From assembly GCA_029259115.1 (NCBI GenBank), contig JAPDJO010000007.1, positions 1 through 19,462 of the forward strand: DNA of 19,462 bases. Reading direction: 5' to 3'. The position numbers were made by a program, and so were the translations under genes. Of the stretch, positions 16,170 through 18,223 are shown piece by piece (position 1 is the stretch's first letter; every line of letters begins with the position of its first letter). Under the pieces are notes generated by a model that made no database searches, was not told where the DNA came from, and saw only the letters and a list, made by a program, of their open reading frames with translations. The stretch is from Thermoplasmatota archaeon (GTDB lineage Archaea > Thermoplasmatota > E2 > DHVEG-1 > B18-G2).

Positions 16170-17228
16170 TTAAAACTTTCGAAACTCTTCCAGAAGAAAG
16201 AGATTGCCTATATTTACCCTTCTAAGATATTTTTTGGCAATACTGTAGCATTCATAAACCAATCTTCTTGGAGTTACTGGCAGATCCATCATCTTGAAGT
16301 CTGGATGGAAGACCAACAGAGAGTAGGGTATGTTAGGGTTTAGTGAGGAAATAAATTTGGCTATATCTTCAACTTCTTTCTTATCTATATATCCAGGCAC
16401 AAGTAAGGTCGTTGCTGTCAGAAGATCATTTCCATCAAAATTCTCCGCTATATATTCAAAGTTTTCAAGTGTAGAATCGTTTGGTCTACCTGTTAGAGCC
16501 ATGTGAAGGTTCTTATCAAAGGCCTTGATATCAAACTTTATGATACCTCCACTTTCATAAGACATCTCTGCAGCCCTTTTAACAAGACTCCTGTTTCCTG
16601 TGCCATTCCATTCCCAGCATATCCTAACTTTTCTTTCCTCTAGAATTCTCTTGCTTGCTTCCAACAGGAAAGGCAACTGAGGCTCCGGAGTTCCACCAAA
16701 GTAACATACACAGTATGCTTTCCTGGACATTTCAACCAAATCTTCTATTTCTATCCTTTTCTTCGAATCAATCAACTTGTGTTCCCAATTCTGGCAAAAA
16801 AGACAGTTAAAAGAACATCCATATGGAAAAACCGCGAGATTATATCCTATTTCTTTACTTCCTGGACAGAACCATGAGGCACAACAATTTGTAGGTAGAG
16901 AATCATAGTATGCAGTTATTACACCTTCTAGAGTTTCTAATCTTCCACCTATATTTCTCCTCAATCCGCAGTATCCTGTTTCGCCATTTCCTATCTTGCA
17001 GTTATTCGAGCAGATTTTACACTCTATTCCTCCATTACTTCTTGGCGGTTGTTCAGGTAATCCAAATTCTCTCCTTACTTTCATATGAACCTTCTTGCAT
17101 ATCTCCAGAGACTCCTCTGGTTTGTTTCTTATACAAGACAGACACACCCCAAGAATCTTAGAAATCTCTCTGCTTATTTTTCCACATATTCTGCATTTTG
17201 CTATCCTACTTCTTTCACTACGTATCAT
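16170..17228 (-). CDS. Radical SAM protein, PFL-activase-like / AmmeMemoRadiSam-like, with Cys-rich N-terminus
   Basis: CxxxCxxC motif CSFNCLFCQN, CYFGGTPEPQ, RICWEWNG, FDIKA, TTLLVPGY, IPYSLLVFHP; extra Cys clusters CRIC..CLSC, CKICSNNC..YCG and CCASWFC. Confidence 0.88.
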   Translation of the reverse strand: MIRSERSRIAKCRICGKISREISKILGVCLSCIRNKPEESLEICKKVHMKVRREFGLPEQPPRSNGGIECKICSNNCKIGNGETGYCGLRRNIGGRLETLEGVITAYYDSLPTNCCASWFCPGSKEIGYNLAVFPYGCSFNCLFCQNWEHKLIDSKKRIEIEDLVEMSRKAYCVCYFGGTPEPQLPFLLEASKRILEERKVRICWEWNGTGNRSLVKRAAEMSYESGGIIKFDIKAFDKNLHMALTGRPNDSTLENFEYIAENFDGNDLLTATTLLVPGYIDKKEVEDIAKFISSLNPNIPYSLLVFHPDFKMMDLPVTPRRLVYECYSIAKKYLRRVNIGNLFLLEEFRKF

Positions 17229-17253
17229 GTTTCGAACTCTTAAAATAGTTCTT

Positions 17254-17392
17254 AACTGTCGGATGCCAGGGTATCCTCCTCATCATTCAGGGACTCCAAG
17301 TCCCTTGATCTGGGAGGGACCCCTACTGGCATCCCTGTGGCCTTGCGCTTGCACCTCTGATCACGAATCACAGAGGCCTTCGATACAAGGCC
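17254..17392 (-). ncRNA. Two-hairpin archaeal box H/ACA pseudouridylation guide RNA
   Basis: GC-rich island in an AT-rich intergenic region. Hairpin 1: GGCCUUG/CAAGGCC stem, internal pocket, GCCUCUG/CAGAGGU stem, K-loop UGA-UUCG-UGA, then ACA (17338-17336). Hairpin 2: GGAUGCCAG/CUGGCAUCC stem, pocket, CCUCC/GGAGG stem, K-turn-like AGA...AUGAUGA, then ACA (17259-17257). The ACA boxes lie 14 and 15 nt from the pocket tops. Confidence 0.88.
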
Positions 17393-17412
17393 AAGAAATC
17401 TATTGTTTCATC

Positions 17413-17419
17413 TAATAAA
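17413..17419 (-). promoter_or_regulatory. Putative TATA box for the H/ACA RNA
   Basis: TTTATTA on the minus strand, 21-27 nt upstream of the first paired nucleotide (17392). Confidence 0.5.
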
Positions 17420-17425
17420 TTAAAT

Positions 17426-18223
17426 TTACGGTCTAAATTTATTTATCTCATCTCTGTATCTCTCAGCAGTTTTCCTTATACCTTCTGGAGATCCCCCCTC
17501 AGCGTAGATTATGCCCCTCGATACATTTATTATCACATTCTTTCCTTCCACGCATCCATAACCCAGAGATTTTTTCAGATCTCCGCCTTGCTTGCCTATG
17601 CCTGGCACAAGCAAAATTCTATCTTTACCGATGATCTCTCTTATTTCCTTTACCTCATCTGGGTATGTTGCTCCAACCACAGCTCCGCAATTCTCTCCCC
17701 AATCTTTTATCTTCTCTGCTACAATTTGGTAAAGTTTTTTATTTCCTACTTTTAAATCCTGAATGTCTCTGGCTGAGGGATTAGAAGTTTTACAAAGTAT
17801 AAAGGTGTACCTATCCTTATAATTCAAGAAGGGCTTTACAGAATCATAACCAAGATAGGGATTCACGGTTGTAGCATCCCCCTTTAATACCTCAAATATC
17901 GCTTTTGCGTACATTCTAGCCGTATTCCCTATATCGTTTCTCTTACCGTCGATTATTACAGGTATACCATCTGGTATCATATCTAAAGTCTCCAAGATAG
18001 AGAAGAACCCTTCTTTTCCATAAGCTTCGTAGAAGGCGAGATTTAACTTGTAGCAACAAACAAAATCACATGTATTTGTTATCACTCTCTCGTTAAACTT
18101 GATTATACCATCTGGTTTTTCTCTCAAGTCCTTCGGTATTTTATCTCTATCAACATCGAGACCTACACAGAGCAAAGAATCATTTTTTGACACAGCCCTA
18201 TTTAATTTCTCTATGAATCCCAT
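17426..18223 (-). CDS. pyrF: Orotidine-5'-phosphate decarboxylase
   Basis: LCVGLD, YKLNLAFYE, catalytic DGKRNDIGNT (DxKxxDIxxT), NPYLG, KTSNPS, GAVVGAT, LVPGIGKQGG, NVSRGII. Confidence 0.96.
   Translation of the reverse strand: MGFIEKLNRAVSKNDSLLCVGLDVDRDKIPKDLREKPDGIIKFNERVITNTCDFVCCYKLNLAFYEAYGKEGFFSILETLDMIPDGIPVIIDGKRNDIGNTARMYAKAIFEVLKGDATTVNPYLGYDSVKPFLNYKDRYTFILCKTSNPSARDIQDLKVGNKKLYQIVAEKIKDWGENCGAVVGATYPDEVKEIREIIGKDRILLVPGIGKQGGDLKKSLGYGCVEGKNVIINVSRGIIYAEGGSPEGIRKTAERYRDEINKFRP

Follow-up and report, generated by a model that had tools for sequence, protein, structure and literature searches.

On the minus strand of the archaeal DNA stretch examined here (contig JAPDJO010000007.1, 19,462 nt at its full length; hereafter the window), positions 17392-17257 very probably constitute the gene for a two-hairpin box H/ACA guide small RNA (sRNA) of approximately 140 nt, a counterpart of the guide RNAs known as HgcG, Pab40, Pf7 and Afu-4. 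The element's sequence, its fold, its conservation and covariation among relatives, the complementarity of its guide strands to rRNA, and the genes for Cbf5, Nop10 and L7Ae in the window's own genome (G000; 1.4 Mb) all bear on this assignment. Under this reading, the RNA would be transcribed, would assemble into a ribonucleoprotein (RNP) and would direct modifications of rRNA.

Minimum free energy folding of the element produced two hairpins at -66.7 kcal/mol. Dinucleotide shuffles (n = 200) averaged -47.8 kcal/mol (standard deviation 4.1; z = -4.62), and none of them folded as stably as the element. The minus-strand letters from 17392 to 17254 are exactly those quoted by an earlier, sequence-only reading of this DNA, and its end at 17254 comprises the last ACA (17259-17257) plus three extra bases, as that reading intended. 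According to the excerpts of PMC4652768 on which we draw, the lower stems of archaeal H/ACA sRNAs measure 7-9 bp, 14-16 nt separate the ACA box from the pair that closes the pocket, and the GA stem counts 8-11 steps, or 10 in every crystal structure. Both hairpins agree with these published rules for stem, pocket, ACA spacing and GA stem (Table 1).

In hairpin 1, the upper stem of 7 bp continues into a kink-loop (K-loop) that can form a U.U pair and tandem G.A/A.G pairs, the second G.A being the tenth step above the pocket. In hairpin 2, the upper stem consists of CCUCC/GGAGG followed by C-G and A-U pairs across a bulged A, and then by G.A/A.G, giving a GA stem that counts 9 steps along its 5' strand and 10 along its 3' strand. 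The kink-turn (K-turn) of this hairpin sets a 5' GA (17310-17309) opposite the GA of AAUGAUGA, with the 3' AUGA at 17286-17283. The G.A pairs of both hairpins are predicted to be sheared, and the K-loop of hairpin 1 would be expected to bind L7Ae. The 3' strand of the hairpin 2 K-turn, AUGAUGA, resembles a C box; a C/D-box reading of the element was rejected, as AUGAUGA and CAGA form the K-turn inside the hairpin and no guide-plus-D-box layout is present.

To characterize the homologues of the element, we built a covariance model, R1, from nine sequences recovered with blastn from the window's genus, its family and two other families of the order; the H/ACA structure was imposed on the model and the pockets were left open. 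R1 found exactly one strong match in the window's own genome and one match per genome in 104 of the 118 genomes of the order, including 42 of the 43 high-quality genomes (at least 90% complete, at most 5% contaminated). Within a sample of 151 genomes from the class, 106 contained a match: one large family had none (0/32), and several others were nearly complete (24/25, 10/13).

All conservation and covariation counts given here refer to 50 sequences aligned to R1. The guide core CGAAG within UAUCGAAG is almost invariant (C in 47/50; G, A, A and G each in 50/50), as are the K-loop letters of hairpin 1 (UGA 47-50/50; UGAU 46-48/50) and the K-turn letters of hairpin 2 (GA 47/50 and 50/50; AUGA 48-50/50). 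The 3' guide strand of hairpin 2, AUACC, is one base shorter than the A-Y-A-A-C-C of the order's other families, and its A.ACC core is present in all 50 sequences. Compensatory changes support all four main helices; they affect 5 of 7 pairs in the lower stem of hairpin 1 (96% of cells paired), 6 of 7 in its upper stem, and 7 of 8 in the lower stem of hairpin 2 (99% of cells paired). Standard pairs occupy 94.7% of cells in the R1 alignment, which is fitted to the model and so favours the structure, compared with 37-44% when the partners are slid by 1-3 columns. Likewise, both-side changes occur in 23 of 32 pairs, compared with 4-9 after sliding, and none of 500 column shuffles attained any of the observed covariation measures. 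An independent analysis of the nine sequences with MAFFT and RNAalifold recovered 16 compensatory pairs.

Collectively, conservation and covariation place the element beyond chance. The alternative that these are GC-rich hairpins without function, or the antisense of a protein gene, is extremely improbable. An open reading frame of 106 amino acids does overlap the element on the plus strand (17095-17415), but it has no Pfam match at E up to 1, and chance hairpins would not account for the fold z-score of -4.6, the class-wide conservation or the compensatory changes in 23 of 32 pairs.

Table 1. Features of the H/ACA element and its surroundings in the window; fractions refer to the 50 aligned sequences.
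Feature	Position	Strand	Remarks
Hairpin 1 lower stem, 5' strand GGCCUUG	17386..17392	minus	7 bp
Hairpin 1 pocket, 5' guide strand UAUCGAAG	17378..17385	minus	8 nt
Hairpin 1 upper stem GCCUCUG/CAGAGGU and K-loop UGA...GUGAU	17353..17377	minus	terminal loop UGAUUCGUGAU
Hairpin 1 pocket, 3' guide strand GCAAGCG	17346..17352	minus	7 nt; GCAA 50/50
Hairpin 1 lower stem, 3' strand CAAGGCC	17339..17345	minus	
Hairpin 1 box ACA	17336..17338	minus	14 nt past upper stem; A 50/50, C 49/50, A 50/50
Hairpin 2 lower stem, 5' strand GGAUGCCAG	17326..17334	minus	9 bp
Hairpin 2 pocket, 5' guide strand UAGGGGUC	17318..17325	minus	8 nt; GGGUC 47-50/50
Hairpin 2 upper stem, K-turn and apical stem-loop GGGAC/GUCCC	17275..17317	minus	
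Hairpin 2 pocket, 3' guide strand AUACC	17270..17274	minus	5 nt
Hairpin 2 lower stem, 3' strand CUGGCAUCC	17261..17269	minus	
Terminal box ACA (ANA in homologues)	17257..17259	minus	15 nt past upper stem; A 50/50, N variable, A 50/50
BRE-like ACCGTAAA and TATA-like TTTAATTTATTA	17413..17432	minus	centred ~27 nt 5' of hairpin 1
TTTT run, candidate archaeal termination signal	17242..17245	minus	11 nt past ACA; sequence only
pyrF (OMPdecase)	17426-18223	minus	TIGR02127, 248 bits
Radical-SAM gene	16170-17228	minus	

The element lies in a 197-nt gap between two genes of the same strand, pyrF and a radical-SAM gene, whose start codon is 29 nt from the second ACA. This crowded position, together with one metatranscriptome contig that runs from pyrF through the hairpins into the beginning of the radical-SAM gene, would suit a cis element, that is, a pyrF terminator or a radical-SAM leader in place of a stand-alone RNA gene. 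We regard such a role as very unlikely. Sequence and structure are kept in 104 of the 118 genomes while the neighbouring genes change; among genus mates, synteny ends right after the terminal ACA, and in genome G011 the copy lies upstream of the 16S rRNA gene. Furthermore, the pockets are single-stranded, invariant and complementary to rRNA, which neither a terminator nor a leader would need, and the element has a conserved upstream signal of its own.

This signal, resembling a transcription factor B recognition element (BRE) followed by a TATA box, overlaps the pyrF stop codon (17428-17426). The 49 homologous upstream regions share an A-rich and then A/T-rich element spanning -37 to -23, in which positions -29 to -26 are 96-98% A/T and positions -34/-33 are 82-86% A. 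If transcription begins at the foot of hairpin 1, this is where an archaeal BRE/TATA element is expected. The predicted promoter, overlapping the end of pyrF, would probably drive transcription of the sRNA independently of its neighbours, and the TTTT run downstream may act as a termination signal. These results bear out most of what the sequence-only reading had proposed: every sequence-level feature that it listed for a two-hairpin H/ACA architecture is present, the upstream TATA-like box keeps its position in the 49 homologous regions, the ACA boxes and GA pairs are conserved in 47-50 of 50 sequences (the terminal box as A-N-A), and the stems covary in a model made from homologues.

To place the element among known RNAs, we searched the whole window against Rfam and obtained no match at gathering scores. 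Below threshold, RF00064 (HgcG, Pab40) matched the element with 37.9 bits against a gathering score of 77 and an E-value of 3.4e-9, the same E-value being obtained in a search of the whole 1.4-Mb genome; by the Rfam rule the element is not a member of RF00064. The alignment places hairpin 1 on HgcG motif 1 and hairpin 2 on motif 2, with the third hairpin of the model (67 positions) deleted. Five of 20 homologues from another family of the order also match HgcG below threshold, at 18.5-29.1 bits and in the same register. The E-value and the alignment of both hairpins point to homology with HgcG. The other sub-threshold matches (SNORD5, 5.8S and a long non-coding RNA; E 0.14 to 6.3) were dismissed as noise, that to SNORD5 (E 0.14) falling in the coding end of pyrF.

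The sole meaningful Rfam match is thus an H/ACA family, in line with the expectation of the sequence-only reading that no different RNA class would be matched. Its suggestion that a missing Rfam match would indicate a new family did not hold, the element being instead a sub-threshold relative of HgcG/Pab40/Pf7/Afu-4. That reading had also described such RNAs as known from few lineages and missed by annotation pipelines; standard Rfam annotation is indeed silent here, but the gene occurs in single copy across the order and in most of the class.

The element shares several features with HgcG/Pab40/Pf7/Pho40 (RF00064; Pyrococcus and Thermococcus). The order of the motifs is the same for hairpins 1 and 2, the GA pairs of the motif 1 K-loop likewise stand 10 steps from the pocket, and GGUCCC...AACC is common to motif 2. 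The motif 1 guides would also address one and the same 23S site, U2588 of P. abyssi (Pab) being the probable counterpart of E. coli 2496. In contrast, two hairpins are present here and three consecutive motifs there, the guide reads CGAAG rather than cGAgG, matching an rRNA U in place of C, and the host belongs to a Thermoplasmata-like lineage rather than to the Thermococcales. In the available excerpts of PMC2377435, Pab40, Pf7, Pho40 and Afu-4 are described as three-motif H/ACA sRNAs, with Afu-4 of Archaeoglobus fulgidus as the counterpart of Pab40. Both the H/ACA kind and the HgcG/Pab40/Afu-4 lineage are therefore known already, and the element is a divergent member.

Eukaryotic H/ACA small nucleolar RNAs (snoRNAs) share the same chemistry and pocket logic and carry an H box between their hairpins; to our knowledge, they lack K-turns and L7Ae binding at that place. 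Among them, yeast snR46 (psi2865) presumably has its target at the position equivalent to E. coli 2496. The literature matches listed, from a search with subscription journals outside its scope, include no Thermoplasma H/ACA guide sRNA, and the passages seen of PMC3608112 treat Thermoplasma only in the context of rRNA gene organisation.

To identify the target of hairpin 1, we used the 23S and 16S rRNAs of four genomes from another family of the same order (G008, G013, G015 and G017), since no 23S rRNA is assembled in the window's family. In all four relatives, the 23S segment GGCUUGC-UA-CUUCGAUG makes 14 of 15 pairs in register with the window pocket: the GCAAGCG strand pairs with GCUUGC immediately 5' of the target U, and UAUCGAAG pairs with CUUCGAUG immediately 3' of it. 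When the guide of each of these four genomes was tested on its own 23S rRNA, the same uridine ranked first of 564-720. Across all 50 guides, ranked on the 967 uridines of the large- and small-subunit rRNAs (LSU and SSU) of G008, this site took rank 1 for 46 guides, rank 3 or better for 49, and rank 10 or better for all 50. By alignment it corresponds to position 2496 of E. coli K-12 rrlH, where E. coli has a C and these archaea a U.

Comparison with HgcG reveals that guide and rRNA differ together. The HgcG guide cGAgG, aligned over CGAAG of the window, fits the CCUCG of E. coli 2498-2502, whereas CGAAG fits the CUUCG of these archaea, and the two guide strands, as aligned, find their complements in a single rRNA segment (E. 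coli 2490-2505). Muller et al. report that Pab40 motif 1 modifies U2588 of Pyrococcus abyssi 23S rRNA, as validated in vitro (excerpts of PMC2377435). An offset of 92 links Pab 2588 to E. coli 2496, and likewise 2647 to 2555 and 2678 to 2586; the spacings of 59 and 90 between these sites also hold in G008. This agreement suggests that hairpin 1 would modify the 23S uridine at the E. coli 2496 equivalent, in the peptidyl-transferase-centre region. A genome-wide search of G000 for guide complements was uninformative, as it gave dozens of chance sites when G.U pairs were allowed.

For hairpin 2, the best-supported site across the 50 guides is position 2596 of the G008 LSU, which corresponds to U2555 of E. 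coli, in helix 92 (the A loop). It came out on top for 25 guides, within the first three for 37 and within the first ten for 40, and in the four own-genome tests it ranked 1, 1, 3 and 2. The 3' strand A-Y-A-A-C-C pairs with GGUUGU (2549-2554); Y is C in 29 sequences and U in 21, a variation confined to C and U that is expected opposite G2553. Other families of the class have C rather than U as the fourth base of GGG-Y-C, which suits G2557 and not A2589 at the competing site U2586. Furthermore, the 59 nt separating the two predicted sites equal the spacing from Pab 2588 to 2647.

The same site recurs in the published assignments, as far as the excerpts of PMC2377435 and PMC4652768 record them. 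By spacing, U2555 equals A. fulgidus L2601 (Pab 2647), which was first assigned to Afu-4 motif 2 and is accepted by Toffano-Nioche et al. for fold Af4.2b. This likeness to Afu-4 draws on the papers' statements and on numbering offsets, not on sequence, and Afu-4 has three motifs against two here. Muller et al. favour instead, on structural rules, the U2586 equivalent for motif 2 of Pf7 and Afu-4 (PMC2377435). We rejected U2586 as the target of hairpin 2: it entered the top 10 of 967 uridines for none of the 50 guides, and the guides of other families cannot be reconciled with it, as they carry a C where A2589 needs U.

The hairpin 2 guide of the window's own family departs from this pattern, with a 3' strand (AUACC) one base short and a 5' strand with GGGG. 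When strict U-N geometry is required, U2555 gives the window guide 11 of 14 pairs, a score that no other site exceeds and that five sites, U2555 among them, share. We therefore rate the chance that hairpin 2 targets the A-loop uridine in this genus at about even.

This departure raises the question of retargeting within the family, either to the 3' minor domain of 16S rRNA (the U1376 region, beside GCCCCUGC) or to 23S U2586, a shift that we consider unlikely but worth weighing. The family's 5' strand, G(U/C)AGGGGU, can form an 8-bp duplex with GCCCCUGC of the SSU at -15.1 to -17.1 kcal/mol (window 17318-17326, minus strand, on the SSU of G008 and G011; E. coli 1379-1386), and owing to this duplex the SSU site ranks first for 6 of 7 family guides. 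The window has U, and its genus mates C, at a position facing G, so that pairing is suited either way. The shortened 3' strand would also fit a change of target, and according to the excerpts of PMC2377435, Muller et al. describe how one substitution changes the specificity of Pab40 motif 2. On the other hand, five rRNA bases would separate the two duplexes at the SSU site in place of the canonical two, with 3 of 6 and 7 of 8 in-register pairs, and G007, a member of the same family, breaks the SSU duplex; U2586 falls with the rankings and the guide letters given above. A search for a 16S target of the G011 guide on its own 16S rRNA gave none that was convincing.

The genome encodes three of the protein partners of such an RNP. 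In G000 we identified Cbf5 (TIGR00425, 449 bits; C16:21176-22117), Nop10 (67.7 bits; C7:43106-43255) and three proteins of the L7Ae family (best, 104.9 bits), L7Ae itself being encoded at C9:51795-52067. Following the established archaeal H/ACA RNP, Cbf5 would bind the lower stem and the ACA box, Nop10 would join it, and L7Ae would sit at the K-loop or K-turn. The two pocket strands would then pair with the rRNA stretches that flank an unpaired U-N dinucleotide, placing the U in the Cbf5 active site for conversion to pseudouridine. Hairpin 1 would thereby act on the 23S U at the equivalent of E. coli C2496, the site of Pab40 motif 1 (U2588 of P. abyssi), and hairpin 2 most probably on the A-loop U2555 (A. 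fulgidus L2601, the site of Afu-4 motif 2).

Several observations weigh against the assignment of the element as an HgcG/Pab40-type guide. The HgcG score is half the Rfam gathering score, and the f2 homologue L070, searched alone, gave nothing for HgcG up to an E-value of 0.01. A search for Gar1 (PF04410) detected none in G000 and reached the cut-off in none of 31 genomes of the order; the sensitivity of this search is poor, as the cut-off was reached in only 2 of 14 control genomes, four of them archaeal, and Gar1 is either very divergent in these organisms or the RNP works without it. Neither an LSU nor an SSU rRNA gene is assembled in G000, nor an LSU gene in any of the family's 8 genomes, and the equivalence of Pab U2588 with E. 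coli 2496 is drawn from spacing and guide complementarity. For hairpin 2, unconstrained duplex energy puts U2555 only at ranks 18-32 of 967 for the family's 7 guides, the SSU site (E. coli U1376 region) coming first for 6 of them, and the 5' duplex is imperfect at every candidate site. Evidence of expression consists of contigs from one sample, which also cover neighbouring genes and possibly derive from DNA. These are Logan contigs in two metatranscriptome runs of that sample, one of 214 nt (17239-17452) and another covering 16953-18078; they show presence in an RNA library, and strand, ends and true transcription are beyond their reach.

Most relatives of the element carry a third domain of approximately 100 nt after hairpin 2. 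Its signature is present in 38 of the 49 other sequences, and G005 and G006, two sister genera, have variants of it. The domain forms a three-way junction, in which UGUCGC/GCGACA is the closing stem, a second stem bears a CUGCUG loop that never varies, and the stem CACCCAAC/GUUGGGUG leads into ACA; examples are L070:1393-1503 (minus strand), L059 and L060, which end in ...GUUGGGUG-ACA-GCGACA. It has neither canonical H/ACA spacing nor a pocket of canonical size or an obvious K-turn. A covariance model of this domain, R2, matches G005 and G006 and found no third domain in G000 or G007, nor in the genus mates, where it gave no more than two matches at E 0.2-0.4; searching G000 for the motifs of the domain likewise found none. 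These results indicate that the window RNA is a two-hairpin derivative, the third domain probably having been lost in the window's genus.

In the three-domain form, found in the rest of the order and in the sister genera, hairpins 1 and 2 are orthologous to those of the window RNA and share its boxes, pockets and promoter position; the box after hairpin 2, however, is ANA, where N can be any of the four bases, and not a strict ACA. Homology of the third domain with the third hairpin of HgcG was considered and rejected, as the Rfam model deletes that hairpin in all sub-threshold alignments and L070 alone has no match up to E 0.01. The sequence GCAGCAG, complementary to the CUGCUG loop, occurs once in G008 23S rRNA at 2570, between the sites at 2537 and 2596, and once in 16S rRNA at 328. 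By analogy with some eukaryotic H/ACA snoRNAs, the RNP might clamp about 60 nt of the peptidyl-transferase-centre region during ribosome assembly in a chaperone-like role, without a recognisable Gar1, the window's genus being a deletion variant and its hairpin 2 having possibly gained a second complementarity, to 16S rRNA. We hold this proposal to be quite improbable; if true, deletion in nature would have reduced the RNA of this genus to its two modifying hairpins.

The rRNA record of the genus is fragmentary. The genus mate G001 has a 5' SSU fragment only, and a metagenome scan with a 24-nt word from this fragment returned one contig, with the same 5' SSU fragment only. The 16S sequence is cut near model position 690-830 in both the genome bin (L042, G001:C119) and the independent contig (L044), which is probably an assembly break at a conserved region.

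The surroundings of the gene vary among strains and lineages. DNA contigs of one sample branch at 17257, and the loose end matches the different downstream sequence of the genus mates. Co-occurring strains thus differ 3' of the sRNA (17257 / 17286), with the radical-SAM gene here and another arrangement in strains like G002 and G003. In G011, the sRNA gene (C14 2769-2915, minus strand, with the third domain extending to ~2701; loci L043 and L057, region C14:927-2915) lies approximately 300 nt upstream of the 16S rRNA gene (927-2398, minus) on the same strand, and co-transcription of the sRNA with rRNA is possible in that lineage. The nearest relatives of the neighbouring pyrF are in three metagenome-assembled genomes labelled 'Thermoplasmatales archaeon' (54-65% identity), followed by bacterial proteins from Zixibacteria, Ignavibacteria and Chloroflexota (45-54% identity); this hints at a bacterial-type pyrF (TIGR02127 pyrF_sub2) that was acquired by transfer. 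The stretch is present in hydrothermal-vent and marine-sediment runs from 11 studies.

For specialists, the element is a useful annotation and no surprise, and the 50-sequence alignment and R1 could be used either to broaden RF00064 or as the seed of a new Rfam family. With it, a large lineage of uncultured archaea from vents and marine sediments gains a well-supported H/ACA guide RNA. Its occurrence there suggests that the Pab40/Afu-4 guide type, with its target in the peptidyl-transferase-centre region, is conserved well beyond the Thermococcales and Archaeoglobus. For these organisms, the element predicts two pseudouridines in 23S rRNA, at the equivalents of E. coli 2496 and 2555.

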